This document shows, piece after piece, positions 2,621-22,396 of a DNA stretch of 64,000 nucleotides. The translations under genes and the position numbers were made by a program. The DNA comes from Vampirovibrionales bacterium (GTDB lineage Bacteria; Cyanobacteriota; Vampirovibrionia; Vampirovibrionales; Vampirovibrionaceae). The notes beneath the pieces are model-generated. The model had not been told where the DNA came from, ran no database searches, and saw nothing but the letters and a program-made list of their open reading frames with translations. The stretch lies in assembly GCA_029262635.1 (NCBI GenBank), contig JAJCZA010000005.1, positions 535,135-599,134 on the forward strand, read 5' to 3'. The stretch's first letter is position 1; every line of letters starts with the position of its first letter.

Positions 2621-2644
2621 AAAAAATTAAAAATTGTGGCATAT

Positions 2645-2718: not shown

Positions 2719-2759
2719 GTTTTTTATGACCCGTTTTATGAAAAGAAGAGGAGCCGATT

Positions 2760-3026: not shown

Positions 3027-3955
3027 ACTTCCAGTAATTTATTTTCAAGCAAGGTGATATGTTGTCGGATTTCATCGATTTCTGAAGGGTTGCTTGTTTG
3101 TTCTAGGTATTGCTTAAAGATCTCAAGGGCTTCCTGATAGCGCTCCAGTTTTTCGAAAGCGTAACCCAAATTGTTAAGGGCAGTGGCGTAATCTGGATCC
3201 AGTTCAATGGCCTTTTGGTACTTAGCAATGGCCTGTTCCGGTTCATTTTTACAATAGTAGGCCAGTCCTAGTTGGTTATAGGCTTTGGCGTAGTTGGCGT
3301 CAACTTCAATGGTCTTTTGGCAATATTCAATGGTGCGCTCCCATTGGCCGCTTTTAGCCAGTGAGATAGAGAGCTCATAGTTACCTTCCAGATGGTTGGG
3401 GTCGATTTCCAGTACTTTGAGATAGGCTTCAATGGCCTCTTCAAACTGTTGGTTGCGATCATACAGCTTGCCGAGAAATAGCCAGGCGTTTTTATTATAA
3501 GGATCAGATTCCACGGCACCTTTATAAGACTCAATGGCTTTGTCATTATCGCCCCGGTTTTCATGAATGAGTCCGATACAATAAAGAGAATCACTGTCAT
3601 CGGGCTTAATTTCCAGTGCCTGCTCAAAGTATTGTTGTGCCTGGTCATATTGTTCGTCCGTATAGTAAAGTCGTGCCCGGTTGTAGAGGGCGTCGGAATC
3701 CTGCGGATCGAGTTCGATGGTTTTCTCAAAATACTCAATGGCTTTTTTTATATCCCCTTGATGTTGGGCCACCAACCCCAGGGTATAATAAGCGGGAGTG
3801 TAGCCAGATGAGAGGGCTAGGGCCTTTAGAAGATCCTGTTGTGCTTTCTCCATCAGTCCGCTCCGATAAAAGTCCAATGCTCGATTGTAATACCATTCCG
3901 GTGACCGGGTGGCGATTTGGAAATAGAAATAAAGGCCGCCCGCAATGCCCGCCAA
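3023..3955 (-). CDS. TPR-repeat protein, probably membrane-anchored
   Basis: about 7 tetratricopeptide repeats (AxxYYxLGxxyxxxGxxxxAxxxyxKALEldP pattern); ORF track start is TTG; in-frame upstream extension encodes a hydrophobic helix (NFPIIIWIVIGLILLL) back to a TGA at about 4051 with no ATG/GTG, so the true start is unresolved. Confidence 0.7.
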   Translation of the reverse strand: MAGIAGGLYFYFQIATRSPEWYYNRALDFYRSGLMEKAQQDLLKALALSSGYTPAYYTLGLVAQHQGDIKKAIEYFEKTIELDPQDSDALYNRARLYYTDEQYDQAQQYFEQALEIKPDDSDSLYCIGLIHENRGDNDKAIESYKGAVESDPYNKNAWLFLGKLYDRNQQFEEAIEAYLKVLEIDPNHLEGNYELSISLAKSGQWERTIEYCQKTIEVDANYAKAYNQLGLAYYCKNEPEQAIAKYQKAIELDPDYATALNNLGYAFEKLERYQEALEIFKQYLEQTSNPSEIDEIRQHITLLENKLLEV

Positions 3956-4098
3956 AAGTAGGATAAGACCAATAACAATCCAGATAATAATGGGGAAGTT
4001 CTCCGCTTTATGGTTCTGTTTTTCCCGCTTTTTATAAAAAAGTATTTTTATAAAATAGTATCCCTGATCCCCGTGTATGGACGCATCCTCTGAACGTC

Positions 4099-4671
4099 TT
4101 AAAATGCAATTTCAGACCGGGCATTCCCAAGCAGAGAAACGGTTGAGAAGTCGAGTGAAAACTCGCAACGCTCCGCATGGGCCAGCGCATACCCACCCAT
4201 GTTCAGCTCGATGCCGCCACTGGCATAAACCTGATCTTTTTTTGTGGACCATGTAAGGGAAGGCGCTTTAAGAGAACTGCCAGACTGATCGATGCTGGTG
4301 ACGGTTACTCCGTCCGTCAGGACCACGGCTTTATCTTTATCCACATAGGTTCCTTTTGGGGCGGTAAACGTAACGACGGGTTCGCCAGCGTCATTATAAA
4401 AGGTGCCCGAAATGTTCGTCAGGTTAGCTCCCGATTGGTCTTTGTAGTAAACGGTTTCCCGAACCTGAAGTTCCCACTTTTTGTGTTCTTTTTCGGTCAC
4501 GGTGAAGGTAACGTTCTCACCGGTAATGTCGCCGATGGGTTTACCGTTATTAGTCGAGCTTTCTGGATCAGGGGCACCGTTCATATAATAGCCGGTAAAA
4601 AGGAGGGAAAAAAGGCCGCCCAGAAGAATCAGACCTAAAATAGTATAAATTAATGTTTTTTGAGGGGCCAT
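4099..4671 (-). CDS. LptC-like membrane-anchored periplasmic protein (N-terminal TM, beta-rich body)
   Basis: 190 aa, single N-terminal TM helix then beta-strand-rich domain with LptC-like size and pattern; assignment is tentative. Confidence 0.4.
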   Translation of the reverse strand: MAPQKTLIYTILGLILLGGLFSLLFTGYYMNGAPDPESSTNNGKPIGDITGENVTFTVTEKEHKKWELQVRETVYYKDQSGANLTNISGTFYNDAGEPVVTFTAPKGTYVDKDKAVVLTDGVTVTSIDQSGSSLKAPSLTWSTKKDQVYASGGIELNMGGYALAHAERCEFSLDFSTVSLLGNARSEIAF

Positions 4672-4691
4672 GGGGGTAAATGTCCTGTTGG

Positions 4692-5585
4692 TTAAACCCG
4701 GGAGAAAACGCTTTCATTATAGCGCAACCCGTTCGGAGGTGTGACAGAGAAATGAGAAGGTATGACCGAGTGGGTTGATTTGGAAATGTGGGGGCGAAGC
4801 AAGGGACGGTGCCCAAATCCGTCGGAAGCAGTCTGTTGGAATGCCTGATAGGCCTTGTTATAAAAGGGGATGGCCAGGGGGGTGATGTGTTGTCCAAGCT
4901 GTTCGTATTTGTAATGAATTCCGTTTAAAATTCGATTGATCCGTTGTTTTTCATCCGGCGTGCTGATTAGTCCCGCTGAAATCCAATTTTTAAGGGCCTG
5001 GAGTAGTGGGGTTTTTTGATCCAGTTGATGGATTTTGAGCAAATCCAGAGTGGGCCAGTGGTTCGAGTTTAGGTGGCGAGATAAATAAGGGTAAAACGGA
5101 ATTTGGAAACTCTTCCAGAGGGTGGGGTTGTTAATCAGGGCGGTGGATAACCGGGTTAATGCCTGGTCTCGTTGTTCAGGGGAAAGGTGGTAGTCGGTTA
5201 TGCGTCCGAAAAAACGGGAAAAACTTAGGTCGGCAAACTCATTATTTTCCATCAGCTGATGGAATAGAGTGGCCTCTTTGGCGTCTTCACGGCACTCGAA
5301 ACGCAAGGTTCCATTGATGTGCAATTGCCAATAGGGCTTGGTTTGCCAAGTTTCTTTTTTCCAAATAATCAGATATAGAGTGTTGTTATTGGGCGCCCAT
5401 CCCATGGTCCATTCATTGGCCGGTAAGTTGTCATATAATAGGTTAATGGGGTCGTCGTATTCAGGTTTTAATCGATGCCAGCCTTTTTCCATCAGCTGAT
5501 GAAGGCACGACCGGGCTTCTTCGGAAGAGAAAAGAGGAGGTGTCTGTTTTTCAGGTAGGGTCGGAGTGGGAAAAAGGGTCATCAT
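4692..5585 (-). CDS. hypothetical protein (297 aa)
   Basis: long ORF, no motif recognised. Confidence 0.45.
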   Translation of the reverse strand: MMTLFPTPTLPEKQTPPLFSSEEARSCLHQLMEKGWHRLKPEYDDPINLLYDNLPANEWTMGWAPNNNTLYLIIWKKETWQTKPYWQLHINGTLRFECREDAKEATLFHQLMENNEFADLSFSRFFGRITDYHLSPEQRDQALTRLSTALINNPTLWKSFQIPFYPYLSRHLNSNHWPTLDLLKIHQLDQKTPLLQALKNWISAGLISTPDEKQRINRILNGIHYKYEQLGQHITPLAIPFYNKAYQAFQQTASDGFGHRPLLRPHISKSTHSVIPSHFSVTPPNGLRYNESVFSRV

Positions 5586-5678
5586 AGAGGCTCATCGAGT
5601 TTTTTTTGGCTCATGGGTGTGTCATATAATACAAAAGCTTCTGAACATTTTTTTGTGCGAGGATAAGCGAGCTTCCGA

Positions 5679-6365
5679 TTAAAAGGATAGGGGATTGACG
5701 GATGGTGGCGGCTCGATTGGGAGGGTTAGTCCGATTAGAGTGAGCAGGGTGGTGGTGATCGCACCACTGATTTGCAAGAAAAGAATCATCGCAACAGGAA
5801 GGATCGCAATCAGGCTTCGTTGCCAGCTTGCGTTGGAGTAGGCTTGCGTACCTAATGTCATGAGGGTTAGACTCCAAAGGGTGATGACGATCAGGGTGAC
5901 GACTTGAGTTATCATTAGGGCTGTGGTGTTCTGAATGAAAAAAAGAAGGGGGAAAAGAATAAGGTTGATCATAAGCAGGGAGGGTAAGGTGAAAAACAAA
6001 CATAACATGAAGACTTGTCGCCAATGAAGTGGTGCTTTAACCACGTGGCTGGTTCCCCAGAGAAAGAGAAACAGAACTGAAGGCCCCAGAATAAGGAGTT
6101 GCCAGGAGTGGATCAGCGTTTGAAAGTAGGTTGCTATAACTGAAAGAGTTTTCTTCCAAAGGTTTTGAGCTGTTATTTCAAGCCCATGGGTGGCCATGAT
6201 CTCGTGAAGAACGCTGAGTAAGAAGGTGATACCCAACATGCCAATCCATAAAGTCGCCAGTGTCTGCTTATTCCAATGATTGTTTTTATCTTTCTGAAAA
6301 AAACGGGAAGGGGCGATGAATAAATCCCGATAACCTTCGAGAACGGTTTGGCGTTTAATACACAT
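5679..6365 (-). CDS. polytopic membrane protein, Yip1-like topology
   Basis: soluble N-terminus then about 5 TM helices; last gene of the paa-like operon direction. Confidence 0.4.
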   Translation of the reverse strand: MCIKRQTVLEGYRDLFIAPSRFFQKDKNNHWNKQTLATLWIGMLGITFLLSVLHEIMATHGLEITAQNLWKKTLSVIATYFQTLIHSWQLLILGPSVLFLFLWGTSHVVKAPLHWRQVFMLCLFFTLPSLLMINLILFPLLFFIQNTTALMITQVVTLIVITLWSLTLMTLGTQAYSNASWQRSLIAILPVAMILFLQISGAITTTLLTLIGLTLPIEPPPSVNPLSF

Positions 6366-6377
6366 GACGAACTCGAC

Positions 6378-7598
6378 TTAAACCTTTTCAACAATCGTGG
6401 CAATGCCTTGTCCGACGCCAATACACATGGTGGCTAGACCGTAGCGACAATTGTCCCGGCGCATCATCTCGTAAATTAGGGTGGTCATGATTCTTGCCCC
6501 ACTACATCCTAGTGGATGCCCGAGTGCGATAGCGCCTCCGTTGACATTAATTTTAGAGACGTCGGCACCCAGCTCCTGAATACAAGCTAATGATTGAGCG
6601 GCGAAGGCCTCGTTGAGCTCAATAAGGTCAATTTGTTCCAATGTTAGTCCTGCCCGTTTTAAGGCTTTACGGGTGGCGGGTACGGGCCCCAATCCCATGT
6701 AGGCTGGATTAACCCCAGCAACTGACGTTGATCGAATACGAACCTTTGGGGTTAGTCCAAGTTCAAGCGCTTTCGCTTCTGACATAACGAGCAAGGCGGC
6801 GGCGCCATCGTTAATGCCGGATGAGTTTCCTGCCGTAACGCTTCCTCCCTCTTTAAATGCCGGTTTTAACGTGTGTAGTTTTTCCAACAGGGTGTCTGGG
6901 CGGGGATGCTCATCCGTATCCACAATAATGGGATCTTTCTTTTTTTGAGGAATAGTGACTGGAATAATTTCGTCTTTAAACCGGCCTTCGCTCATGGCTT
7001 TGCCCGCTTTCTGCTGACTATCAAAGGCAAACTGATCCTGCGCTTCTTGGGAGAGTTGAAATTTTTCGGCCACGTTTTCGGCTGTTTCGCCCATGCCGTA
7101 AGGGTAGTGCAATTGAGCCAGCTTCGGGTTGGTGAACCGCCAGCCGATGGTCGTATCAAAGAGGTCTGTCTTCCGGGAAAAAGCGGTGGGTGCCTTGGCC
7201 AGAACAAACGGTGCGCGGGTCATGCTTTCTACACCACCTGCAATGTAACACTCCGCCTCACCGGCTATAATGGCGTGGCTGGCCTGATTAATGGCCATAA
7301 GGCCTGAGCCACAGAGTCGGTTTACAGTGCCGCCAGCAATGGTTTCCGGGAGTTCGGCGAGTAGGACCGCCATCCGGGCCACGTTTCGATTGTCTTCGCC
7401 TGCTTGATTGGCGGCACCTAGAATCACGTCTTCAATGAGCGTTGGGTCCAGTTGGGGGTTACGCCGAACCAGTTCTTTCAGGACCAGAGCCGCTAAATCG
7501 TCTGGACGAACCGAGGCCAAGCTACCGGAAAATCGACCGACCGGGGTTCGGATAGCGTCAACAATGACGGGCGTGGTTTCCGGGGTGGTCGGGTTCAT
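6378..7598 (-). CDS. 3-oxoadipyl-CoA/3-oxoacyl-CoA thiolase (PaaJ/PcaF-like)
   Basis: thiolase signatures NRLCGSGL (active Cys), GGVESM, C-terminal GLATMCIGVGQG; start overlaps upstream gene by 4 nt. Confidence 0.9.
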   Translation of the reverse strand: MNPTTPETTPVIVDAIRTPVGRFSGSLASVRPDDLAALVLKELVRRNPQLDPTLIEDVILGAANQAGEDNRNVARMAVLLAELPETIAGGTVNRLCGSGLMAINQASHAIIAGEAECYIAGGVESMTRAPFVLAKAPTAFSRKTDLFDTTIGWRFTNPKLAQLHYPYGMGETAENVAEKFQLSQEAQDQFAFDSQQKAGKAMSEGRFKDEIIPVTIPQKKKDPIIVDTDEHPRPDTLLEKLHTLKPAFKEGGSVTAGNSSGINDGAAALLVMSEAKALELGLTPKVRIRSTSVAGVNPAYMGLGPVPATRKALKRAGLTLEQIDLIELNEAFAAQSLACIQELGADVSKINVNGGAIALGHPLGCSGARIMTTLIYEMMRRDNCRYGLATMCIGVGQGIATIVEKV

Positions 7599-8401
7599 GA
7601 CGAGGTTTCCTCCAGTTCGGTCTTGCTACCTTCGTAAATATAGAAACCTTCGCCGGTTTTAACACCAAGCTTGCCGGAGCCAGCCATCTGCTTGAGTAGA
7701 AGCACCGGACGGTAACGGTCTTCAAAATATTCGTTGACTAATGTGTCGAGAATCTGACAGATAACGTCGATACCGATTTTATCGGCCCATGCCAGTGGAC
7801 CTTCCGGGTAGTTCGTACCCAGCTTCATGGCGGTGTCAATATCTTCAGGGCTCGCCACGCCTTCCATTACGGCAGAAGCCGCCTCATTAACGAGCATAGC
7901 AAGCACTCTAGGGAGAACCAGTCCGGGGGTGTCCGTAATTTCATAAGCCTTGACCTGAAGGGATTGGAACAGATTTTTAGCCTTGGCTAGCGCTTCAGGG
8001 TCGGTGGCCTTGGTGGGCGCGAACTCAATAACGTGACGGCCTTGATAAAAGGCCAGCGGAGAGTACATGATGAGCCGGGAGATTACTTCTCTGTCAAAGA
8101 AGGGAGTATCATAGGTGGTTGCATAGCCTGAGGTGCTAATGCCTGATAAGAGAACAATGGGATGATGCTCTTCAGATAGGGCTTCCAGAAATTCTGGAAG
8201 ACTATGGTAGTCCATCCAGCCGTGATGGCAAATAATAACAAAGTCGGGCAGTTCATGAGCCTCTAGGGGTTCTTCCGGGATACTTTCCACATCGTCAATG
8301 TCATCGTAAATATGAACCTGATGTCCTGCCGTGCGACAGAGACTGAAAAAGGTTTGGGTAATCACATCCTGGGGCTTGCCCAGCAGAAAAATTTTACTCA
8401 T
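7595..8401 (-). CDS. 3-hydroxyacyl-CoA dehydrogenase-like protein with degenerate NAD-binding and catalytic motifs
   Basis: C-terminal 3HCDH dimerisation domain intact (PGLVLPRVLAMLVNEA...), but N-terminal GxGxxG replaced by LLGKPQD and the HFFNP catalytic-His region replaced by MYSPLAF. Confidence 0.65.
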   Translation of the reverse strand: MSKIFLLGKPQDVITQTFFSLCRTAGHQVHIYDDIDDVESIPEEPLEAHELPDFVIICHHGWMDYHSLPEFLEALSEEHHPIVLLSGISTSGYATTYDTPFFDREVISRLIMYSPLAFYQGRHVIEFAPTKATDPEALAKAKNLFQSLQVKAYEITDTPGLVLPRVLAMLVNEAASAVMEGVASPEDIDTAMKLGTNYPEGPLAWADKIGIDVICQILDTLVNEYFEDRYRPVLLLKQMAGSGKLGVKTGEGFYIYEGSKTELEETSS

Positions 8402-8427
8402 GGTAAGGGCTGAACTTTCTCGATGGT

Positions 8428-9324
8428 CTAGGCTTTCTTTGAGTCGTAGGTGTAAAATCCCTGATTGGTTTTTCGTCCCAACAGGCCGGCATCAACCATG
8501 CGACGTTGAATAATATGGGGTTTATAACGAGGTTCGTGGAAATAAGCTTCATAAACAGACTGAGTTACGGCGAAGTTGACGTCCAGTCCGATGAGATCCA
8601 TTAGCTCGAAGGGTCCCATCTTAAAGCCACCAGCTTCTTTTAAGACTTCATCAATGGTCTCATGAGATGTCGCTTGTTCTCCCAGAAGTCGGAGAGCTTC
8701 ACCGTAAAAGGGTCGAGCCACTCGGTTCACAATAAAACCCGGTGTGTCTTTGGCGATAACCGGGGTTTTACCGACGGCCTGAGCGAATACTTTTAAGGTC
8801 TCAATGATACGGGGATCTGTTCGTTCGCCCCGGATAATTTCAACGAGTTTCATCAGAGGCACTGGGTTAAAGAAATGGAGACCTGCTATTCGATCCGGAT
8901 TTTTGGTTGCGCCCGCAATTTCAGTGACGGAGAGCGACGAGGTATTGGAGGATAAAATTGTCCCGTCGGGAGCTAAGGCATCTAGCTCTTGAAAGATCTC
9001 TTTTTTGAGAGCCATGTTTTCCGGCACGGCTTCAATCACCAAATCGCACTGAGCCGTCTCTTTAAGCTTTAGTGTGGTGATCAGGTTTTCGTTGACCCGC
9101 TGAAGGTCATCGTCCGTTAGCTTGCCTCGGGCCTTTCCTTTGGCTAGTGAGGTTTCAATCTGGGTACGGCCCCGTTTGAGGAAGTCTTCCTTAATATCAA
9201 ACAGAACCACCTGAAACCCCTTGAGAGCAGAAATTTGGCCAATCCCTGCTCCCATCGTACCGGCGCCAACAATCCCGACCCGTTTAATGGTTTCAACAGG
9301 AGGGGTATCAGTTTTTTTGCTCAT
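8428..9324 (-). CDS. 3-hydroxyacyl-CoA dehydrogenase (PaaH/Hbd-type)
   Basis: GIVGAGTMGAGI Rossmann motif, HFFNPVPLMKLVEI catalytic region, C-terminal 3HCDH domain. Confidence 0.9.
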   Translation of the reverse strand: MSKKTDTPPVETIKRVGIVGAGTMGAGIGQISALKGFQVVLFDIKEDFLKRGRTQIETSLAKGKARGKLTDDDLQRVNENLITTLKLKETAQCDLVIEAVPENMALKKEIFQELDALAPDGTILSSNTSSLSVTEIAGATKNPDRIAGLHFFNPVPLMKLVEIIRGERTDPRIIETLKVFAQAVGKTPVIAKDTPGFIVNRVARPFYGEALRLLGEQATSHETIDEVLKEAGGFKMGPFELMDLIGLDVNFAVTQSVYEAYFHEPRYKPHIIQRRMVDAGLLGRKTNQGFYTYDSKKA

Positions 9325-11763: not shown

Positions 11764-12627
11764 CTATTCCAACAGTTCTTTTCTTAGCATGCGGTAGTCG
11801 GGCTTGCGTTTTTCGACAAATGCCCGGGTGCCTTCGCCGGTTTCCAGACTGCCGGAGTGGATGGTCAGCCAGTCTCGGGCATGACCAATGGTCATGCCCC
11901 AGGAAAAATCCCGCCAGAAGTTTAGTTGTTGTTTGGTGTAGCGGGTGCATTCCGGTAGTTTATTTAGAAGCCTATCGGCCATGGCTTCAACGGCTGTGTC
12001 CAGTTGTTCTCGTGGCACTACTTGATTCACTAGGCCCCACTCTAAAGCTGTTCCAATCGGGATTTCTTCACACAGAAGCAGGATTTCCCGTGCCCGACGA
12101 TCGCCCACAATTAAAGGCAACCATTGGGTAGCGCCACCGGCAGCAACCGACCCATGAGCCGAGCCCACCTGGCGGATGTAAGTGTCCTCCACGGCAATGG
12201 CTAAGTCACAAGCCATGTTCAGTTCGTTGCCGCCGCCGACGACGATGCCATTAATCCGGGCAATAGTTGGTTTGCCAACGTTTCGGAGCTTTTCGTGCAT
12301 GTCAATGAACCCGCCCATCCACTTCCAGTAGTCACGCGGACGGTCCAGAAAGTTGGCGGCTTGTTCTTTCAGATCGGCACCAGTACAAAAAGCTCGTTCC
12401 CCGGCTCCCGTATAAATTACCACACCGACTTCATCATCCCACGAGGCGTCTTCCGTGGCTCGAATGATTTCTCGAAAAGTGAGAAAGTCAAAGGCGTTTA
12501 GGCTTTTCGGGCGGTTTAGAGTAATTTTGGCTCGCCCATTGTATTTTTCATAAATAATATTCTGAAACCCCATTTCTTCAGGTTTTTCAGCACCTAACAT
12601 GGGGTGTGTCTTACGGGTTGTTGTCAT
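11764..12627 (-). CDS. crotonase-superfamily enzyme, MenB/BadI-like subgroup
   Basis: ITLNRPKSLNAF, AFCTGADLKEQ; longer, MenB-like C-terminus. Confidence 0.7.
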   Translation of the reverse strand: MTTTRKTHPMLGAEKPEEMGFQNIIYEKYNGRAKITLNRPKSLNAFDFLTFREIIRATEDASWDDEVGVVIYTGAGERAFCTGADLKEQAANFLDRPRDYWKWMGGFIDMHEKLRNVGKPTIARINGIVVGGGNELNMACDLAIAVEDTYIRQVGSAHGSVAAGGATQWLPLIVGDRRAREILLLCEEIPIGTALEWGLVNQVVPREQLDTAVEAMADRLLNKLPECTRYTKQQLNFWRDFSWGMTIGHARDWLTIHSGSLETGEGTRAFVEKRKPDYRMLRKELLE

Positions 12628-12632
12628 GAGCG

Positions 12633-12968
12633 TTAATAAACTCCTGCGCCTTCAATGGTGGATACTTCGGATGTCACCATGGTGACGTATTTTGAGGCAA
12701 AGCTCATAAGGTTATCCCCGGCAGCCTGACCTTCTGGTGATTTTAACGCGTTTTTTAGTGCGTCCATACTATCAAAGGTGAGTTCAGCGACCATATAATG
12801 AGGTAGGTCACCGCCCATCATGTTTTTAGTGAGCTTGGATACTTCAACACGAGCTAATCCTGGCATTTTTTGAGCTAATGGCAAGTGGGTCTCAAAGTAT
12901 TGGCGGTCAAAATCTTCCGGATTATCCGGTTGGGAGTAGAAAGCAAAGAGTTTTGCGGCTTTTGACAT
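12633..12968 (-). CDS. EthD/Dabb-like small alpha+beta barrel protein
   Basis: 111 aa; first gene of the operon; SD GGAGGG upstream of ATG 12968; tentative family call. Confidence 0.45.
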   Translation of the reverse strand: MSKAAKLFAFYSQPDNPEDFDRQYFETHLPLAQKMPGLARVEVSKLTKNMMGGDLPHYMVAELTFDSMDALKNALKSPEGQAAGDNLMSFASKYVTMVTSEVSTIEGAGVY

Positions 12969-13108
12969 GGTTTAAATACCCTCCAGGCCGACATAATCGG
13001 CTCTCTCTGATTGAATGACAAACCAGTATGACACCTGATTTGCGCCTATTTTGTCACAAACGAAACAGAGAATCAAAAGAAATACCCGTGGACAGGTAGG
13101 AGCGTTTT

Positions 13109-14416
13109 TTATTTGGAATAGCTTTCGGCCACCAGCTCAATGGGGTGTGCTATGCGCATGGGGTTGGCGTTTTCCTGAAGCCCTTTGGTAATTTGAAGAA
13201 GGCAACCAGGGTTACCCGTGACCAGTGTTTGAGCTTGAGTCGCTTCGATGTGCCGAATTTTTTCCGCCAAGATGTCATTACTCAGCTCCGGGTGTTCCAA
13301 ATTATAGATGCCCGCACTGCCGCAGCAAAAAGCAGCGTCTTTTAATGGGAGGAGGGTGAGTCCTTCGATCTGGTGGAGAACGTTTTCAGGTTCGTTAATA
13401 ATACCCTGAGCATGGTGTAGGTGGCAGGCGGCATGGTAAGCTACGGTTTGGGGTATGGGAAGGCGACAAGGCTTTAAGGGTTTTTTGGCTAATAGAGCCA
13501 TGATATCTACGGTTTTTTCTGAGAAAAGGCGAGATTTTTCAGCGTAGATTCCGTCATTGGCCAGTAGTTTCGTATAGTCTTTTAGCGTGGATCCGCATCC
13601 GGCCGAATTAGTGATAACCCAGTCGGGTTGGGATCTTAAAATGGAAAGCACGTTTTTCCGAGCCAGTTTTTTTGCAATGTCGTCTTCCCCGCCATGGTAG
13701 GCCAGTGCACCACAACAGGTTTGTTCTGGGAGTGTGACGTAATAACCGTTATTGACCAATGCCTTAATGGTCGCCCAATGGACAGAGTTATACATGACAT
13801 CCATGATACAGCCTGTGAATAAAGCGACACGTTCGTGTTCAGGGTTTCCAAACGACATGCCGATGTTAAATGGTTTGTGTTGGGGGATGGGAGGAATAAG
13901 CGCTTCGTAATGTTGAATTAGTGGGAGGAGGCTTAGGACATTTGAAAATCGGACAAGACGTTGAAGTCCGGCTTTTTGATACAGACGAAGCCAGAAGGCC
14001 CCAAACTGAAGTAAGTTGGAGTTGGGTAGAACTGTTTGAAAGAAAAAGCGCTTGAGATGGCGAATGAACGGATTTTTCTGGGTTAAGAACATCTTTTGGG
14101 ACTGATGAAGAATATCGCCGTAGGGCACCCCGGAAGGACAAGCTGTTTCACAGGCGAGGCAACCGAGGCACTGGCTCAGGTGAGGTTCTATTTGCTTTGG
14201 CTGGAGATGCTCGTTGGGCTCGTCTGATTCGTTTTTAGCGTCCTGTAACATGTGCTTTAACAGGTAAAGTCGGCCTCGAGGAGATTCTACCTCGGAGCCA
14301 GTTACCTTATAAGTGGGGCAAACGGGTAGGCAGAAACCACAGTGAATACACGATTTCAACGAATTCAGCAGACTGTTTGTGGAAGGTAGAGGTGTTGAGG
14401 GTTCAGAAAAGGTCAT
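13109..14416 (-). CDS. glcF: glycolate oxidase iron-sulfur subunit GlcF-type (2x[4Fe-4S] + two CCG domains)
   Basis: CIHCGFCLPVCP and CLGCLACETACP ferredoxin motifs; CCG-domain motifs TCCGALAYHGG and AFCCGSAG. Confidence 0.85.
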   Translation of the reverse strand: MTFSEPSTPLPSTNSLLNSLKSCIHCGFCLPVCPTYKVTGSEVESPRGRLYLLKHMLQDAKNESDEPNEHLQPKQIEPHLSQCLGCLACETACPSGVPYGDILHQSQKMFLTQKNPFIRHLKRFFFQTVLPNSNLLQFGAFWLRLYQKAGLQRLVRFSNVLSLLPLIQHYEALIPPIPQHKPFNIGMSFGNPEHERVALFTGCIMDVMYNSVHWATIKALVNNGYYVTLPEQTCCGALAYHGGEDDIAKKLARKNVLSILRSQPDWVITNSAGCGSTLKDYTKLLANDGIYAEKSRLFSEKTVDIMALLAKKPLKPCRLPIPQTVAYHAACHLHHAQGIINEPENVLHQIEGLTLLPLKDAAFCCGSAGIYNLEHPELSNDILAEKIRHIEATQAQTLVTGNPGCLLQITKGLQENANPMRIAHPIELVAESYSK

Positions 14417-15690
14417 GAGCTGGACGATTCCTTTGTGTGAGAAGGGCTTGAAAAGACCAGGTGACGAGAGTGTAAGATATTATGCGGATCATACAGGGCT
14501 TTTAGTTGGTACATCAAGGCTTGAGCGACTGGGTCGTTAGGCAGGTTTAGTTTTTGAGTTAGGCTGAGAAAATCGGAGGGAAAGTCCAGTAGCTGGAGAT
14601 GCCCGCCTTGGTTCTGGGCTAATTTAGCCAGTTGCTTTAAAGGTTGTTTGAGTTTGGTCAATTGGGGCATATTGTCGGGCTGCCATATCAGGTGTACAAA
14701 CCCAGCGGCAAGACGAAGCTGGATGGGGTAGCTTTTGACTTCCGGGAACAAGGACTCAATTTCTTTTAGTGTTTTTCGTAAGGCGGACAAACCTTTGGGT
14801 ATGGTCAGACGAAGGAGGTGGGACTGATCCAGATGTGTCCGCTTTAGAAAAGATCGGGTTGTCTGGCTTGAGGTCGGTTTTGGGTTGCCCAGACAAGCTT
14901 TCAGTTCAGCCTCCAGCGTGCTGAATGAGTTTTTGGTTCCCTGCGCTCGGATCCAGAGTGCCCAGGATTCTTTTTGAAATAGTTCGCAGGCCGTGAGTTG
15001 GTGTCGGTGTTGATGAAGCCAGGGGAGCAAATCTTCCAGCCACGGGTGATGGGGTGACGAAACATAAAAGCCCCAGTCTTGAGTGGCCTCGGGTAGTGGA
15101 GCTAGTTTGAGGGTGACAGCGGTAATGACTCCCAGCGTATGATGGCTCCCGGTGTAGAATTTATTGAGGTCATATCCGGTGACGTTTTTAACCACCTCGC
15201 CACCGTAATGGGTGATTTCTCCATCGGGTGTTACCATTTCCAGGCCCAGCACGTAATCTCGAGGGTAACCGCCTGAAAGCCCTGTTTCCGCCGCTGGGCG
15301 GTCCTGAGCGATGACATCGGCGAGTAAGAGATCGTCCGGGTAGCTTAAGGGGAACTGTTGGCCTTGACTCGCGAGGGTTTGTCTTAGTTCACCCATGGTA
15401 ATGCCGGTTTCTACGGTAATGATTAGGTCATTTATTCGGTGGTTTCTAATGGTTTTTAGGTGTTTCATGTTCATCCAGAGGGGGTGTTCCATTAGTAGAG
15501 CGTCGTTATAGTTTAGAGAGAGAGGCCTCTTTTGTTGAACGGATATATGGAGGAGCTGGGCAACTTGTTCCACCTTGTTGGGGGTGAGAATGAACCCTTC
15601 GGTCTGGATGTCACCAATGGATAATGGTTGAATGACGGATGAGCTTTCCAGGGCTTCCAGTTCTTGGGTTGAAAGATCCATTAAATCCAT
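14413..15690 (-). CDS. glcE: glycolate oxidase FAD-binding subunit GlcE-type (with about 150-aa C-terminal extension)
   Basis: PCMH-type FAD-binding domain; 4-nt overlap with glcF, 10-nt overlap with glcD. Confidence 0.75.
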   Translation of the reverse strand: MDLMDLSTQELEALESSSVIQPLSIGDIQTEGFILTPNKVEQVAQLLHISVQQKRPLSLNYNDALLMEHPLWMNMKHLKTIRNHRINDLIITVETGITMGELRQTLASQGQQFPLSYPDDLLLADVIAQDRPAAETGLSGGYPRDYVLGLEMVTPDGEITHYGGEVVKNVTGYDLNKFYTGSHHTLGVITAVTLKLAPLPEATQDWGFYVSSPHHPWLEDLLPWLHQHRHQLTACELFQKESWALWIRAQGTKNSFSTLEAELKACLGNPKPTSSQTTRSFLKRTHLDQSHLLRLTIPKGLSALRKTLKEIESLFPEVKSYPIQLRLAAGFVHLIWQPDNMPQLTKLKQPLKQLAKLAQNQGGHLQLLDFPSDFLSLTQKLNLPNDPVAQALMYQLKALYDPHNILHSRHLVFSSPSHTKESSSS

Positions 15691-18874: not shown

Positions 18875-19360
18875 ATGACGATGGAAAAAGAACAAGCGTT
18901 ATTGGGAGCGGGATGCTTTTGGGGTGTTGAAGCCACATTTCGAAAGATTGAGGGGGTGTTGGAAACTGCCGTAGGCTACTCTGGCGGCGATGTGGTTAAT
19001 CCTACTTACGAAGACGTTTGCACGGGCATTACTGATCATGCTGAGGTTGTTCATATTGTCTTTGATCCGAAGGTGGTTTCTTATCGTATGCTGTTAACTG
19101 TTTTTTGGCAGGTTCATGATCCCACGACCCCGAATCGGCAAGGGCCGGATCAAGGGACCCAGTATCGTTCGGTTGTTTTTTGCTATAGCGATGCTCAACA
19201 TGCCGAAGCCCAGCAAATAAAACAAGAGTTTGAAGAAGCTAAAAAATTTTCACAGCCCATTGTGACCGAAATAACGCCGGCCTCTCTCTTTTATCGGGCA
19301 GAAGAATATCATCAGCGTTATTTTGAAAAACAAGGTCGTGGTCATTGTTATAGACCATAG
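18875..19360 (+). CDS. msrA: peptide-methionine (S)-S-oxide reductase MsrA
   Basis: GAGCFWGVE active-site motif, full-length 161 aa. Confidence 0.9.
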   Translation: MTMEKEQALLGAGCFWGVEATFRKIEGVLETAVGYSGGDVVNPTYEDVCTGITDHAEVVHIVFDPKVVSYRMLLTVFWQVHDPTTPNRQGPDQGTQYRSVVFCYSDAQHAEAQQIKQEFEEAKKFSQPIVTEITPASLFYRAEEYHQRYFEKQGRGHCYRP

Positions 19361-19470
19361 AACTTATTTTAAATGTAACAAAACTGCAATATTAACAAGC
19401 ACCAAGAGCAATCTTAATAAAATATTTGTTTTTATATAAATAGCATATGTAAAACAGGCAAAAAGAGAGC

Positions 19471-19493
19471 AAAGGTGCTTTTAAAAGGTGCTT
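19471..19493 (+). promoter_or_regulatory. 10-bp direct repeat AAAGGTGCTT x2 (3-bp spacer) in the long AT-rich region upstream of the repeat-protein gene
   Basis: exact repeat at 19471-19480 and 19484-19493 inside a 250-bp AT-rich non-coding region. Confidence 0.25.
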
Positions 19494-19634
19494 CTATTTG
19501 AGTGCCTAATCGATCATTAAAAAATGACAAATCAAACACAGACAAAAATGGTTTGTTTTGATAATCAGAAGAAGAATTTTAACGGATACAGATCCGTGTG
19601 CAGATAGAGATTGAGAGAGTTTAAGGGAAATACT

Positions 19635-21956
19635 ATGATTAATCCCCTTTTTAACAACTACCAAACAGCGAGATCCTTCCAGATGAATCCGGGAGTGTAT
19701 CAGCTTCCGACCCAGGCCCAGCCGCTCGCTTTTCAGCAGCCTCAGTTTCAAGGCCAACAGGCTGTGGGGCAACAAGCTTTAGGGCAGCCTCAAGGGGCTC
19801 AAATGATGAACATGATGCTCCAAATGATGAGCATGTTGCTTCAAGTGCTTCAACAACAATTTAATCCGGGAGGCCAAAAACCTTTAGGCCAACAGCCAAA
19901 TGCTGCTGCAGGCAATGCGGGTAATGCAGGTAATGCAGGTAATAGTGGCGCTCTTGGTGGAGCTCCTGCTGCTGCCGGTAATGCAGGTAACGCGGGCAAT
20001 AGTGGTGGTATTTATGGCACCCCTGCCGCTGCAGGCAATGCGGGTAATGCAGGTAACGCAGGTAATAGTGGTGCTCTTGGTGGAGCTCCTGCCGCTGCCG
20101 GTAATGCAGGTAACGCGGGCAATAGTGGTGGTATTTATGGCACCACTGCCGCTGCAGGCAATGCGGGTAACGCAGATAATGGTGGAGCTCCTGTTGATGC
20201 AGGTAACGCAGGTAATGGTGCTGGTGTTTATGATGCTCCCGGTGGTGCTTACGGTGCTCCCGGCGGAGCCCCTCCTGCAGGTGATGCAGGCAATGGTGTT
20301 GGTAATGACGGTACGCAACCTTATCTACAGACCGACGCCGAAGATGCCGTGGATTATATCTTAGCTCAGACCCAAGGTGGTACCAGTGGCGTAAACGAAG
20401 CCATTGAAGGTCGCTTTGCCCGGGACGGTTCCCGATTTGCAACGGCAGGTGCTAATGAGTTTGATGCGGCGATCGTGTCGAATTATGCGGCCCAATTTAA
20501 AGCGTTTGCTCTTGGAAAGGATCCTAAATTCGATCCGGGTGTTGATGATGTTAGAACCATTGCCAATAACATTACCGAAGCGCAACAAGTTCAATTTACA
20601 CCGGAAGCGGAACTCTTATCCAAGGTGGCTGCGGTTTACCGGGGCGAGATGACCGGTAGCGTAAACGAGTATGACAACAATGCCCTGAGAAATGTTCTAC
20701 TTCAGTTTAACCGGGGTGACATTGCCAATACAGACGGTGTCGGCCAGTTTGACGTTCAGTCAATTGGTGGTGTGGTCAAAATGCTCAATGAAGAGCAAGA
20801 CCCGGCGCTTCGTCAGCAAATGCTTCAGCAGGTTTTTGACTTCCAGGGGAACTCTCCCTCCAGTCCAAGTGGAGCGGTTCCTCAGCTCGGTGCTTATCAG
20901 CGAGCCGTTGATGTGGTTCGAAACGGTACCATTGATGGCTTATTGAATAACTATGCCAATGGTGTTCAGACCACCCAGCCTCTTTACAATGGCCCGGCAA
21001 ATCCAAATGGCGAGCCTGTTTCAGGGGCAGTTAACCGGAATATTGATTTTCAGGCCCTGAGTACGCAAGATCGAACTGCTCTTGGACTCAATGACCGTGA
21101 TCGAGCTGTTCTCCATCTATATGGTCGTCAAATGATTTCTCAAGGGTTTCAGGATGGCGGTATCTACACTAATATTCTGGATAACAACACGGGTACCGCT
21201 GCGGAACAACAATTAGTTGCGGAACTTCGGGCAAGAGATCAAGCCCAGTTTGGTGTGGATACTGGTGTTGCGTTGGATGAAGAGTTTTTTGCTCTCCATC
21301 AACGACTCACGGGTGAAGATTTATCGACCCGATATGCCAACCGGCAGGTCAATGCTTCACAAGGTGCCATTAATATTGTTAACGATCTGGATCAGCTCCA
21401 GCAAAAGACAGGTTTATCCACGTTTGAGCAGTCTATCTTAAGACTCTATGGCCACGAACCCTTAATGAACGGCGGAAAAATTGATGGCTCCAGTCTCGCT
21501 TATACCATTGCCAACAGTAATGCATTAGATAGTGACGCAAAATCGGGTGGAAATGGTATTGATACTCAAGCTCAGACGTTACTGGAGCTTGATCTTGCTC
21601 GGGATGGTGTTGTCAACGGCGATGCGTTAAGCATTGGTTTTACTGGCGCATTAGATAAGCTTTATCTGGGTACAGAGGGTGTGACCGAACAAGGTCTGCA
21701 GCAAACCGTTATGAATCAAGCCGCTCAACTTGGCCGGACCACTCAACAAATTGGTCAAGATGTGTCTCGGGGTGTCGATGCTGCCATTGGTCAAGCAACT
21801 CAACTCGTTAAGGATCACCCAGTCACTTCCGTTGCCGCTGCAGGTGGACTAGCCGCCGCTACAGCTGTATGCCCTTACCTTGGTGGGTTAGGCGCATCGG
21901 GTGTCGCCGCAACATTTGGTGGCCCTCAGGCCGGAGGTAATGGTATTCCAGTCTAA
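19635..21956 (+). CDS. large low-complexity protein: Q-rich N-terminus, (GNA)n tandem repeats, about 580-aa C-terminal region of unknown function; no signal peptide
   Basis: ATG 19635 with SD AAGGGA 6 nt upstream (ORF track start 19611 is TTG); long ORF; antisense His/Tyr-rich ORFs are artefacts. Confidence 0.7.
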   Translation: MINPLFNNYQTARSFQMNPGVYQLPTQAQPLAFQQPQFQGQQAVGQQALGQPQGAQMMNMMLQMMSMLLQVLQQQFNPGGQKPLGQQPNAAAGNAGNAGNAGNSGALGGAPAAAGNAGNAGNSGGIYGTPAAAGNAGNAGNAGNSGALGGAPAAAGNAGNAGNSGGIYGTTAAAGNAGNADNGGAPVDAGNAGNGAGVYDAPGGAYGAPGGAPPAGDAGNGVGNDGTQPYLQTDAEDAVDYILAQTQGGTSGVNEAIEGRFARDGSRFATAGANEFDAAIVSNYAAQFKAFALGKDPKFDPGVDDVRTIANNITEAQQVQFTPEAELLSKVAAVYRGEMTGSVNEYDNNALRNVLLQFNRGDIANTDGVGQFDVQSIGGVVKMLNEEQDPALRQQMLQQVFDFQGNSPSSPSGAVPQLGAYQRAVDVVRNGTIDGLLNNYANGVQTTQPLYNGPANPNGEPVSGAVNRNIDFQALSTQDRTALGLNDRDRAVLHLYGRQMISQGFQDGGIYTNILDNNTGTAAEQQLVAELRARDQAQFGVDTGVALDEEFFALHQRLTGEDLSTRYANRQVNASQGAINIVNDLDQLQQKTGLSTFEQSILRLYGHEPLMNGGKIDGSSLAYTIANSNALDSDAKSGGNGIDTQAQTLLELDLARDGVVNGDALSIGFTGALDKLYLGTEGVTEQGLQQTVMNQAAQLGRTTQQIGQDVSRGVDAAIGQATQLVKDHPVTSVAAAGGLAAATAVCPYLGGLGASGVAATFGGPQAGGNGIPV
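19902..20186 (+). repeat. in-frame tandem repeat, 123-bp unit (41 aa AAAGNAGNAGNAGNSGALGGAPAAAGNAGNAGNSGGIYGTP) x2.3, near-identical copies
   Basis: units 19902-20024, 20025-20147, partial 20148-about 20186; only a few synonymous/one T-to-P differences. Confidence 0.85.
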
Positions 21957-22020
21957 TAAAAAGAATGTCTAAAGGAAAAGAAGTAGGTAGAGAAATAAAA
22001 GAGGAATTATGATTAAAAAG

Positions 22021-22058
22021 CAGAATCTCCTGACTTGTCAGGGGGTTCTGTTTTAAAA
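22021..22058 (+). terminator. rho-independent terminator after the repeat-protein gene
   Basis: stem cagaatctcctgac/gtcagggggttctg (loop ttgt) followed by TTTTAAAAT. Confidence 0.55.
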
Positions 22059-22066: not shown

Positions 22067-22396
22067 ATGACCCGTATCAACGAACTGGAAGCAGAAGAAT
22101 ATGCCCGCCACCACCTTTTAAAGTCGGGTATTGTTGCTGAGTTGAAAAAGAATAAAATCTATATTTGGACTATCAAAGCGGAGCCTGATGCCCTGTTTAT
22201 TGCCATTGATTCTCGTCAAAATACTCGGGCGGATATGGAAACGGTTTACCGCATCATTCGTGATTTTTTGACGCCTTTGCAACGGAAAATCGAGTTCAAA
22301 GAATTGGCGATTAAAGAAAACTGTTGTTTTGGGGTCTGTCACGGTTGCCTTAATGGGGATCCTCAAAGCCAAGCGCTTTGGATTGATTCAGAATAA
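22067..22396 (+). CDS. hypothetical protein (109 aa) with C-terminal CCFGVCHGC Cys cluster
   Basis: ORF with ATG; no family recognised. Confidence 0.35.
   Translation: MTRINELEAEEYARHHLLKSGIVAELKKNKIYIWTIKAEPDALFIAIDSRQNTRADMETVYRIIRDFLTPLQRKIEFKELAIKENCCFGVCHGCLNGDPQSQALWIDSE

Follow-up and report, generated by a model that had tools for sequence, protein, structure and literature searches.

The 64-kb window, that is, the whole stretch of DNA that was analysed, contains a real gene, a monocistronic unit of a Vampirovibrionales chromosome that is terminated separately (Table 1). The open reading frame carries a TTG at 19611 and ends at 21956 on the forward strand, and translation likely starts at the ATG at 19635, because the Shine-Dalgarno-like AAGGGA lies 7 nt 5' of this codon and the resulting N-terminus, MINPLF, is like those of homologues (MINPLTT, MLINP and MVNPIAF). 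Orthologues show AGAGAG purine-rich tracts at the position of AAGGGA, and one public gene call uses an alternative start at 19683. The encoded 773-aa protein is acidic, with few Lys and Arg residues and one Cys. We regard the gene as monocistronic because it has its own intrinsic terminator (z -3.3; 0 of 200 shuffled sequences equally stable), which also separates it from a downstream 109-aa orphan ORF. The neighbours (msrA, a thioesterase gene, clpB and tRNA synthetase genes) constitute a core housekeeping context, and none of them shows conserved synteny: no other ORF of the window was found at matching positions in 25 related loci. The sequence features listed in the preliminary description are all present, with some details corrected below.

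Table 1. Features of the locus, in window coordinates.
Feature	Position	Strand	Support
Promoter-like composite motif TGTAAC-GCAAT-TTGTTTTTAT	19374..19435	+	kept upstream of orthologues
Tandem 13-nt direct repeat AAAGGTGCTTTTA/AAAGGTGCTTCTA, in ~200-nt leader	19471..19496	+	12/13 identical
Shine-Dalgarno-like AAGGGA, 7 nt 5' of ATG	19623..19628	+	read from sequence
Coding sequence (likely start), 773 aa, pI 4.36, single Cys	19635..21956	+	sequence and homologues to E 7e-160
Residues 1-53, conserved N-terminal peptide (MINPLF...) and Q/P-rich disordered segment	19635..19793	+	pLDDT <50
Residues 54-75, Met/Gln/Leu-rich amphipathic helix, GAQMMNMMLQMMSMLLQVLQQQ	19794..19859	+	AlphaFold2 prediction
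Residues 76-228, Gly/Ala/Asn-rich spacer, interrupted (GNA)n, recent 123-nt duplication	19860..20318	+	disordered in AlphaFold2 model
Domain A, residues ~230-450, all-alpha	20322..20984	+	pLDDT mostly >88; HMM match 20328-20981, E 7e-104
Domain B, residues ~475-728, all-alpha	21057..21818	+	AlphaFold2 model
Residues 729-773, disordered Ala/Gly-rich tail; CPYL at codons 21870-21881	21819..21953	+	AlphaFold2 model, sequence
Intrinsic terminator, 17-bp stem then U-run	22017..22058	+	MFE -24.7 kcal/mol

The protein consists, in order, of a Q/P-rich start, a Met/Gln-rich helix, an interrupted (GNA)n region, domains A and B, and an Ala/Gly-rich tail. A Q/M-rich, prion-like start followed by Gly-Asn-Ala repeats had been described previously, and the composition agrees with this: Gln makes up 28% of residues 1-53, and residues 76-228, which bear the (GNA)n runs, contain 31% Gly, 27% Ala and 15% Asn. 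The pattern [QN]P[LIF] occurs within the first 7 residues of 21 of 118 family proteins (partial sequences counted), and N-termini similar to the MINPLF type are found in other proteins encoded behind the same upstream motif. Residues 54-75 form the sole predicted helix within the N-terminal 228 residues, and an equivalent helix recurs throughout the family, in A-type (also stand-alone) as well as B-type proteins. Repetition in the GNA region is far beyond chance; Tandem Repeats Finder reports a 123-nt unit present 2.3 times at 95% identity (19901-20179) as well as 9-nt GNA units. The GNA runs are short (3-4 triplets) and Pro-free, with the Gly-X-Y register broken every 3-5 triplets, and a collagen-like helix is thus unlikely for this protein. 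Among homologues, the low-complexity region ranges from ~0 to 350 aa and varies in chemistry (GNA, GGYGPGG, PGQIPG) while the heads, domains A and B, stay conserved, which argues for a spacer role.

The preliminary description treated the sequence beyond the repeats as a single, unique C-terminal domain of ~580 aa. Instead, the AlphaFold2 model contains two confidently predicted domains and a disordered tail, and uniqueness was not borne out, as there are 18 close relatives and ~105 cluster representatives among 1.84 billion. The family was found mainly in Vampirovibrionales, to which the window itself belongs, and in Myxococcota and Vulcanimicrobiota. Domain B, which occurs in all family members, is composed of two homologous ~100-aa modules, both bearing an L(W/Y)G motif, with more helices after them; the internal duplication is detected by hhalign with a probability of 96.4% (E 1.2e-9). 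Domain A was considered as a relative of these modules and is not related to them; elsewhere it also occurs as a separate (GNA)n-rich protein. The A-B fusion is shared by the 773-aa protein and many other loci, one locus (L008) encodes the fusion in B-A order, Myxococcaceae encode A and B as separate adjacent genes, and in two further loci (L005 and L007) A and B are divergent neighbouring genes. Because they are found fused, permuted or as adjacent separate genes, domains A and B probably act together, and this history of gene fusion and fission suggests that they may bind each other.

The earlier statement that the protein belongs to no recognisable family held up in Pfam and NCBIfam searches; together with PADLOC and PHROGs, these assigned no family to the 773-aa protein (E<=1 for Pfam). 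A Pfam scan of 100 family members returned only add-on EF-hand, Collagen and AAA_16 matches in a few relatives. Foldseek comparison of two AlphaFold2 models with the PDB gave no match (best E 0.36 and 0.25), and PDB sequences searched with whole-family, domain B and domain A profiles yielded only nucleobindin (E 0.37). The A and B heads are therefore without a detectable relative or matching solved structure. By sequence comparison, the 773-aa protein is the fused (A-B) form of a rare two-component family, and any novelty concerns the family and fold only. A full-text literature search for the repeat peptide returned nothing relevant.

A mundane origin, either in a known family such as phage tail fibres or bacterial collagen-like adhesins or as a mis-assembled repeat artefact, is very improbable. 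NCBIfam returns the Scl2/SclB collagen-like adhesin as a weak match (E 0.003; 16.6 bits, where the cut-off is 325), A-type relatives match Pfam Collagen (E 5e-11), and one public short-read assembly breaks inside the GNA repeats. However, no sequence or fold similarity to phage structural proteins was detected (0 matches in PHROGs, no relative in IMG/VR, best E 0.84 in a Foldseek search of BFVD with the 773-aa protein model), nor is there a prophage context in this core housekeeping neighbourhood, and the interrupted Gly-X-Y runs do not favour a collagen. Conserved domains outside the repeats and the 105 relatives imply that the gene is real. Since the homology searches found no mundane family, for example a phage tail fibre, they do not refute the preliminary reading.

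The collagen-like proteins Scl1/Scl2 of Streptococcus and BclA of Bacillus nevertheless share with the 773-aa protein a common plan of globular head, tracts with Gly at every third position and a short helical element by the repeats. BclA has no Sec signal and carries an N-terminal targeting peptide. The 773-aa protein is likewise without a Sec signal, and its stand-alone A-type relatives are the ones that match the collagen model. On the other hand, the 773-aa protein itself has no PF01391 match and scores far below the NF038329 cut-off given above, its short GNA runs are free of Pro, its all-alpha heads do not match V or C1q-like domains, LPXTG is absent, and no NCBIfam anchor model matched.

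Domain B has 27 invariant residues, including H494, H607, D548, D617, D653 and D657. With so many invariant His, Asp, Glu and Arg residues, it could have a catalytic or ligand-binding site instead of a structural role. Each module is predicted to fold as helix, short loop, helix, twice, and domain B might be a divergent EF-hand/dockerin-like protein, with four degenerate helix-loop-helix units binding Ca2+ or a calcium-dependent partner. Paired helix-loop-helix elements and loops that keep the DG-x-(I/V) signature are common to both, the fourth loop aligns with an EF-hand of nucleobindin-1 (aDlasDGvvnGdsle), the only PDB sequence matched by the domain B profile, and genuine EF-hands are appended in some relatives (canonical loops in 7, by pattern scan of the retrieved family proteins). 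Yet the nucleobindin match lacks significance (E 0.37), positions 3 and 12 of the loop are non-ligand (Ala; Ala/Ser), and the modules are ~100 aa long as opposed to ~35-70. The 773-aa protein has no Pfam EF-hand match, Foldseek returns no EF-hand protein, and the canonical loop D-x-[DNS]-x-[DNSTG]-G-x-[ILV]-x-x-x-[DE] is absent from it, DLARDGVVNGDA being closest. We therefore consider calcium binding by domain B decidedly improbable.

The sole Cys of the protein is C746, within CPYL in the tail. The pattern CP[FYVLIM][LM] is present in 55 of 70 complete-looking members, and close variants in 7 more bring the total to 62/70; only F, V, Y or M were observed at the third position. Exactly one Cys is found in 58 of the 70, and an ATAVCPFLGG context around it is conserved. 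The Gly/Ala-rich tail had been likened to secretion or sorting tags. It is indeed present and conserved; however, it fits no known sorting tag. Like LPXTG, PEP-CTERM, GlyGly-CTERM and MYXO-CTERM tags, the last of which has an invariant Cys, it combines a short conserved motif near the C-terminus with a small-residue hydrophobic stretch. In contrast to these, it ends in ...GGNGIPV without basic residues (most members likewise have no terminal basic cluster), and its hydropathy is below the transmembrane threshold. The highest 19-residue Kyte-Doolittle mean of the protein, located in this tail, is 1.36, so no classical transmembrane segment is present, and Myxococcota members do not have the hydrophobic stretch. 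By eye, the Q/P-rich N-terminus has no hydrophobic core and no hydrophobic signal. No NCBIfam tag model matched, and the combination of a Sec signal with a tripartite sortase, exosortase, rhombosortase or myxosortase tag was not found in the 773-aa protein. A confident docking of the tail onto domain B was not found in a Myxococcota homologue.

The tail also recalls a regulatory motif of known heme-responsive proteins, one of which, ALAS1, carries CPFL. CP-type heme-regulatory motifs consist of Cys-Pro and a hydrophobic residue in a flexible segment (PMC11442138). The same sequence signature is seen here, as C746-P-Y-L has flanks with pLDDT <50 and the motif occurs in 62/70 complete members. 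As in ALAS1, HO-2, IRP2 and bacterial Irr, it would be a single, disordered, short and movable Cys-Pro motif, although here the surroundings are Ala/Gly-rich and the ATAVCPFLGG context is more strictly conserved than in known examples; the assignment is putative. This resemblance contributes to a possible but tentative alternative, in which the protein is an intracellular scaffold or condensate former: the prion-like low-complexity region and the A and B heads would build a cytoplasmic or membrane-apposed assembly, the weakly hydrophobic Ala/Gly tail would touch the membrane, and the Cys-Pro would serve as a heme-regulatory-type or redox switch. Consistent with this are the missing signal peptide and classical transmembrane segment, the tail pLDDT <50 in both AlphaFold2 models, and the N-terminal instead of C-terminal position of CPF in two members, as expected of a movable short motif. 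In six related genomes of Vulcanimicrobiota a B-only gene adjoins minCDE, a hint of a cytoplasmic role, and at one locus a Fur-family regulator gene lies 730 nt upstream. However, only one clade of close relatives shows the minCDE synteny, and only that single locus has the Fur neighbour; neither hut-gene nor Fur neighbours are general. The Lys/Arg-poor composition is atypical of cytoplasmic proteins, and both the EF-hand add-ons of some relatives and a VWD-type protein that shares the upstream motif and the N-terminal module (see below) argue against a scaffold.

The preliminary description noted an AT-rich non-coding stretch upstream, and the intergenic region (19361-19634) is indeed 274 nt long with a GC content of 29.6%, compared to 47.1% for the window. 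Within it, the reported 10-bp direct repeat (AAAGGTGCTT, twice) exists as part of a tandem 13-mer, but inspection of upstream regions at related loci did not reveal it, and the leader (19445-19640) has no significant structure (z -1.4). A composite motif is conserved instead, with TGTAAC at 19374-19379, 28 nt, GCAAT at 19408-12, 13 nt and TTGTTTTTAT at 19426-35. Of the 12 examined loci of Vampirovibrionales type, 8 have it upstream of the orthologue; for TGTAAC by itself the count is 9/12 (0.04 expected per 300 nt), and 262 kb of these loci contain 10 matches where 0.03 are expected. A second copy occurs in the window at 2083-2023 (reverse strand), and metagenome contigs contain 84 unique exact matches, with spacing peaks at 17 and 27/28 nt. 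We infer a promoter role for this element. The instances inspected have spacings unlike those of a sigma-54, NtcA or plain -35/-10 promoter; the motif does not act as an RNA hairpin or attenuator either (mean z -0.3, hairpins only in a subset), and no Rfam family was found downstream of it. In a Myxococcaceae locus, homologous genes have sigma-54-type promoters and lie beside a gene for an FHA-domain sigma-54 activator. The over-representation of the motif upstream of orthologues, these sigma-54 promoters and activator, and the gene's own terminator point to dedicated regulation. The earlier suggestion that the gene is regulated is thus supported, although not by way of the AAAGGTGCTT repeat.

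The composite motif also precedes genes for other low-complexity proteins without signal peptides. For example, one of these has a VWD/GDPH domain (FCGBP, E 6e-8) and another is LysM-like (weak, E 0.4); both are without a signal peptide and share the same kind of N-terminal module, a low-complexity stretch and a Met-rich helix. VWD-type domains are extracellular where characterised. Calpain-like and subtilase-like readings of two motif-sharing proteins were unsupported.

Indirect indications may point to the secreted, surface or effector role that the preliminary description proposed for the 773-aa protein: its acidic, Lys/Arg-poor, one-Cys composition, the EF-hand add-ons of relatives, and the motif-sharing proteins without signal peptides, including the VWD type. 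Arguing against export are the conserved free Cys, unusual in extracellular proteins, and the fact that no secretion-system gene was found in the 64-kb window or beside any homologue. Taken together, we favour, with a probability of roughly 35%, a tightly regulated, self-assembling structural or adhesive protein that is exported independently of Sec. Such a protein would be non-enzymatic and follow a sticker-and-spacer plan, in which head A would bind head B of the same or another chain, oligomerisation would be driven by the Met/Gln helix, the (GNA)n tracts would act as elastic or polyproline-II-like spacers, and the lone Cys could be a site for cross-linking or for a ligand. Expression would be switched on by a dedicated factor at TGTAAC...GCAAT...TTGTTTTTAT, and a Sec-independent export system would read the N-terminal module, placing the protein on or outside the cell. 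The many invariant polar and charged residues of domain B could argue against a non-enzymatic structural role.

These same residues could form an active site if the protein were a secreted effector or toxin directed against prey or host, with the disordered N-terminus recognised by a type III (flagellar-type or other) or type IV system and A and B acting in or on the target cell. Vampirovibrionales and Myxococcota, where most of the family is found, include known predators, the disordered N-terminus has no Sec signal, several N-termini (MSFPINNASG..., MVGINSIS...) resemble those of flagellar axial proteins, and the Ala/Gly-rich two-arm tail loosely recalls the hydrophobic hairpins of pore formers. 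Nonetheless, we consider this unlikely, given that the vicinity has no conserved gene for a secretion apparatus, chaperone or immunity protein, that Myxococcota members have no hydrophobic tail, that sequence searches detected no toxin or enzyme family, and that we know of no predators among Vulcanimicrobiota. The only chaperone-like neighbours are fliS at one locus (L004) and a CesT-like gene 5 kb off at another (L026), and neither is conserved; the fliS link was rejected, as a tRNA gene lies in between and housekeeping genes such as rpoBC and rplJ surround the locus. Colicins have a Gly-rich unstructured N-terminal domain and helical C-terminal domains, and are acidic, Cys-poor and without a signal peptide. 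The 773-aa protein shares these traits, with a Gly/Asn/Ala-rich disordered N-terminus and a short conserved peptide; in contrast to colicin-type bacteriocins, it lies in a chromosomal housekeeping context with no immunity or lysis gene and no Colicin, pyocin or toxin Pfam domain. Searches of Pfam, PADLOC, the PDB and the window ORFs found neither a toxin domain nor an adjacent immunity gene. For type I secretion of the RTX kind, there was no HemolysinCabind match, the GNA repeats contain no Asp, and the neighbours examined are housekeeping genes.

A wider form of the favoured structural or adhesive reading, which we regard as doubtful, is that the A/B repeat proteins and those motif-sharing low-complexity proteins without signal peptides that also have the N-terminal module (peptide and Met/Gln helix) might serve as cargo or as building blocks for a Sec-independent export or assembly pathway, not described so far, in Melainabacteria, with a sigma-54-controlled counterpart in Myxococcota. 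The product would be an elastic matrix outside the cell or a structure for attachment; both head domains would represent new folds, and the Cys of CPFL a new type of anchoring or ligand motif.

Vampirovibrionales are a non-photosynthetic, partly predatory sister lineage of cyanobacteria, and to our knowledge almost nothing is known of their surface and attack machinery. With its unmatched heads, single-Cys motif and own cis-regulatory element, the family offers a concrete entry point to their biology. Even if the protein were a cytoplasmic scaffold, the catalogue would gain two domains of unknown function as well as a Rosetta-stone pair. Proteins without signal peptides across Melainabacteria, human-gut members among them, may form a regulon that is defined by the upstream motif; if true, this would indicate either a novel way of exporting proteins or a novel class of structural proteins of low complexity.

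The target gene, a single long ORF opening with TTG, encodes a modular protein with two co-evolving heads (domains A and B), one conserved amphipathic helix and a freely variable spacer. We place its start at an internal ATG, which would give a 773-aa product, because AAGGGA lies 7 nt upstream and the resulting N-terminus (MINPLF) matches those of homologues (MINPLTT, MLINPNMSLF, MVNPIAF). One public gene call begins at a later ATG, on a short-read contig that stops within the repeats. Residue counts agree with the composition given in the preliminary description (a Q/M-rich start, GNA repeats and a Gly/Ala-rich end): Gln makes up 28% of residues 1-53; Gly, Ala and Asn account for 31%, 27% and 15% of residues 76-228; and Ala and Gly each contribute 24% of the last 45 residues. 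Residues 54-75 are GAQMMNMMLQMMSMLLQVLQQQ, and the predicted pI is 4.36. The highest 19-residue hydropathy mean, located in the tail, is only 1.36, so that the protein indeed lacks a classical transmembrane helix. Tandem Repeats Finder detected 9-nt GNA units and a 123-nt unit present 2.3 times; since its copies are 95% identical, the repeat count may vary or depend on the assembly. L036, a public Logan short-read contig, ends within the GNA repeats, and the 682-kb NCBI contig spans them.

Coordinates of the features discussed, in the window or in related or motif-bearing loci (L numbers) from other genomes and metagenome contigs
Sequence	Feature	Position	Strand	Remarks
Window	Long ORF from TTG	19611-21956	+	
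Window	Target gene from the ATG placed here	19635-21956	+	
Window	Alternative ATG	19683	+	
Window	msrA	18875-19360	+	
Window	Composite motif	19374-19435		
Window	Tandem 13-mer	19471-19496		
Window	123-nt repeat unit	19901-20179		
Window	GNA repeats where L036 ends	19900-20320		
Window	CP motif codons	21870-21881		C746-P-Y-L
Window	Terminator	22017-22058		17-bp hairpin then U-run, z -3.3
Window	109-aa ORF	22067-22396	+	
Window	310-aa ORF	3023-3955	-	
Window	Second composite motif	2083-2023	-	TGTAAC-N28-(A)CAAT-N-TTGTTTTTAT
Window	ORF behind second motif	906-1850	-	314 aa
L005	Stand-alone A-type gene	7091-8716	-	
L026	Stand-alone A-type gene	12886-14751		
L031	Stand-alone A-type gene	13548-15251	-	
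L032	Stand-alone A-type gene	11794-13173		
L034	Stand-alone A-type gene	4638-6242		
L034	Activator, 379-aa, A and B genes	1132-8067		Myxococcaceae DASRBA010000055.1
L034	Sigma-54-type promoters	3093, 4545, 6450		Near-consensus
L076	Composite motif	676-737		

The surroundings are housekeeping genes. Upstream lie msrA, then a DJ-1/PfpI-family protein, glycolate-oxidase-like genes and enoyl-CoA hydratases; downstream are a 109-aa orphan, a thioesterase, an EamA transporter, a pseudouridine synthase and clpB, and more distantly IleRS, PheT, GlnA (sharing 72-79% identity with proteins assigned to Vampirovibrionales, Vampirovibrio sp. and Candidatus Melainabacteria), IspG and radical-SAM enzymes. 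The hairpin and U-run that part the target gene from the next ORF form a dedicated terminator, which makes the gene monocistronic. A peptide methionine sulfoxide reductase gene (msrA) directly precedes, on the same strand, a gene for a protein with a Met-rich helix; msrA is absent among annotated neighbours at other loci, and the adjacency is probably a coincidence. The 109-aa ORF 3' of the terminator forms a cluster of its own in a collection of 15 billion proteins, has a C-terminal Cys cluster (CCFGVCHGC) and matches nothing in Pfam, NCBIfam or PADLOC. Elsewhere in the window, a 310-aa ORF weakly and repeatedly resembles ORFs in L016 (766 aa), L024 and one more related locus (22-29% identity); it is a shared repeat protein unrelated to the target.

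As had been noted from the sequence, the protein belongs to no family recognised by Pfam, NCBIfam, PADLOC or PHROGs, and a whole-family profile matched no PDB sequence. The preliminary description had called its C-terminal domain unique, but the protein is not: a set of 5.8 billion sequences contains 18 close relatives, which share 40-52% identity with it at E values as low as 7e-160. Of 1.84 billion clusters, a profile of the most conserved part retrieved 105 representatives, 71 with E below 1e-30. Species-representative genomes with matches belong to Vampirovibrionales/Vampirovibrio (the closest), Myxococcaceae, Archangiaceae and other Myxococcota, and Vulcanimicrobiota, together with two MAGs labelled Burkholderiales. 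IMG/VR viral contigs contained no family members.

AlphaFold2 with the family alignment predicted two confident all-alpha domains, A (~230-450) and B (~475-728), with pLDDT of 88-97 for most 10-residue blocks inside them; the tail and the residues before 229, save helix 54-75, are disordered. A Met/Gln/Leu-rich helix of ~20 residues and a short N-terminal peptide, M-x-[QN]-P-[LI]-x-[FL], recur across the family, and homologues differ freely in the length and chemistry of their spacer (GNA, GGYGPGG, PGQIPG). Domain B is an internal duplication: its halves align over 91 columns (hhalign probability 96.4%, E 1.2e-9) with matching motifs (RAVLHLWGRQ...DGGIY vs xVLRLWGHEP...DGSIL), and 27 positions are invariant, including R480, R490, H494, Q499, E524, D548, H607, D617, D653, D657 and Y677. 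Domain A was ruled out as a relative of these modules. The sole PDB sequence match of the domain B profile, the nucleobindin-1 EF-hand on aDlasDGvvnGdsle, is not significant (E 0.37). Canonical EF-hand loops occur downstream of B in seven relatives, two of which reach Pfam EF-hand models; the window protein itself has no canonical loop. Domain B is possibly built from degenerate helix-loop-helix units, a lead and not a finding, and an EF-hand-like role in Ca2+ binding is improbable.

Domain-specific HMMs applied to six-frame translations of all fetched loci revealed several arrangements of the two heads. They are fused as A-B in the window, L001-L004, L006, L019 and L025-L030 and as B-A in L008 (Vulcanimicrobiota, 1057 aa), are adjacent same-strand genes in the Myxococcaceae loci L010, L011/L034 and L013, and are divergent neighbours in L005 and L007. 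By eye and by full-length alignment (20-26% identity, conserved motifs), the B-only genes of L031 and L032 also adjoin an A-type gene, and an extra A-type gene follows the A-B fusion gene in L026. This fusion, fission and permutation is classic Rosetta-stone evidence, from gene arrangement, suggesting a joint role for A and B, which the window protein carries in fused form. Stand-alone A-type proteins consist largely of long perfect (GNA)n tracts (up to ~60 consecutive triplets) and have their own Met/Gln helix and a GGGY end. A GGY, GSGY or GGGY end, and with it a C-terminal Tyr, is conserved in Vampirovibrionales-type and Myxococcaceae A-type proteins alike, that of L005 excepted. One stand-alone A-type protein matches Pfam Collagen (E 5e-11); the window protein lacks the defining features of bacterial collagen-like proteins and of phage proteins, and its being a tail fibre, a collagen adhesin or an artefact is essentially excluded. 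Apart from the A/B pairing, no neighbour gene is conserved across phyla. In six related genomes (L016, L017, L018, L021, L022, L024), mostly Vulcanimicrobiota with some named just "bacterium" or Burkholderiales, a divergent B-only gene adjoins minC-minD-minE, an adjacency that is either functional or merely inherited synteny.

The flexible tail carries a hallmark Cys-Pro (CP) motif. Exactly one Cys is present in 58 of 70 complete-looking members; in 55 the final 110 residues contain CP[FYVLIM][LM], whose third position is only ever F, V, Y or M, and seven more have close variants (CPFF, CPFV, CPYF, CPMF). Outside the family, ALAS1 carries CPFL. Two members have CPF near the N-terminus instead. 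A hydrophobic Ala/Gly stretch flanks the motif in Vampirovibrionales-type members; Myxococcota members, which end ...GASSCPFLNGGGA..., are without it. The motif is disordered in both AlphaFold2 models. By sequence, a CP-type heme-regulatory motif is defined as CP with a hydrophobic residue next to it, within a disordered region (PMC11442138), and the window protein agrees with this definition. Its motif could sense heme or redox state within an intracellular scaffold, which is the main rival reading and a rather doubtful one.

The 274-nt intergenic region upstream of the target gene is 29.6% GC, against 47.1% for the window. The preliminary description had suggested regulation through a direct repeat there. 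The repeat exists, as a tandem 13-mer, but inspection of upstream regions at other loci did not reveal it, and the leader holding it is not significantly structured (z -1.4). Regulation is supported instead by a dedicated upstream element, a conserved composite motif (TGTAAC, ~17-18 or 27-28 nt, GCAAT, ~13 nt, TTGTTTTTAT) found upstream of the orthologue in 8 of 12 Vampirovibrionales-type loci examined. These loci hold 10 occurrences against 0.03 expected, and TGTAAC alone is present in nine (0.04 expected per 300 nt). A-type genes are also preceded by the full motif (L005) or by its GCAAT...TTGTTTTTAT part only (L031). A second window copy lies ~170 nt upstream of an ORF that may belong to the same regulon; its Gly/Pro/Phe/Asn-rich product starts MSFPINN, with no signal peptide or PHROGs match.

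An exact-match scan of metagenome contigs recovered 103 motif stretches (L037-L139), 84 of them unique; the contigs are low-GC and include human-gut assemblies. The first spacer has two pronounced length peaks (17 nt, n=20; 27 nt, n=16; 28 nt, n=11; 2-8 per other length) one helical turn apart, which fits an upstream protein-binding site and a core promoter. An RNA hairpin was ruled out (mean z -0.3), and no Rfam families lie downstream of the motif. ORFs found close to it usually start 20-60 nt past it, by eye with no obvious signal peptide, and the motif seems to be a lineage-specific class of promoter in Melainabacteria. At the Myxococcaceae locus L034, the A gene, the B gene and a 379-aa low-complexity gene each follow a near-consensus sigma-54-type promoter (TGGCAA-N5-TTGCT, TGGCAT-N5-GTGCT and TGGCAC-N5-GTGCT), and directly upstream of all three is a gene encoding an FHA-domain sigma-54 activator. 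Together with the composite motif data, this gives good support in two phyla for control by a dedicated factor.

Several proteins behind the motif (L076, L138 and L084, the last a family B member) share the target's N-terminal plan of a low-complexity stretch and a Met-rich helix. That of L076 resembles the target in its Q/N-rich N-terminus and two Met-rich helices, and its C-terminal part matches the GDPH/VWD region of FCGBP (E 6e-8); a similar GDPHF segment follows Gly/Ser/Asn and Pro/Thr repeats in L137. To our knowledge, VWD domains are extracellular wherever characterised. In six human-gut contigs the motif precedes a LysM-like protein, whose sole PDB match is the MltD LysM domain (E 0.4).

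We propose, with an overall probability of about 0.35, that the window protein is a sticker-and-spacer structural protein exported by a Sec-independent route. In this model, cross-links between chains would come from A:B binding and from helix oligomerisation, and elasticity from the Gly-rich tracts. Such export is favoured, as a prediction from sequence, by composition, by the EF-hand add-ons in relatives and by the proteins of VWD (possibly LysM) type that share the motif and N-terminal module and have no signal peptide. No secretion apparatus genes occur within the 64-kb window and no export apparatus is linked to the target gene. Bacterial collagen-like proteins, CP-type heme-regulatory motifs, EF-hand/dockerin modules, C-terminal sorting tags and colicin-type architectures offer the closest parallels; the protein lacks the defining features of sorting tags, RTX substrates and colicins, and an effector or toxin role is unlikely. 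With its mechanism proposed only, the target is a clean, conserved and testable case from a little-studied lineage, and the regulon-like motif that comes with it was unexpected.
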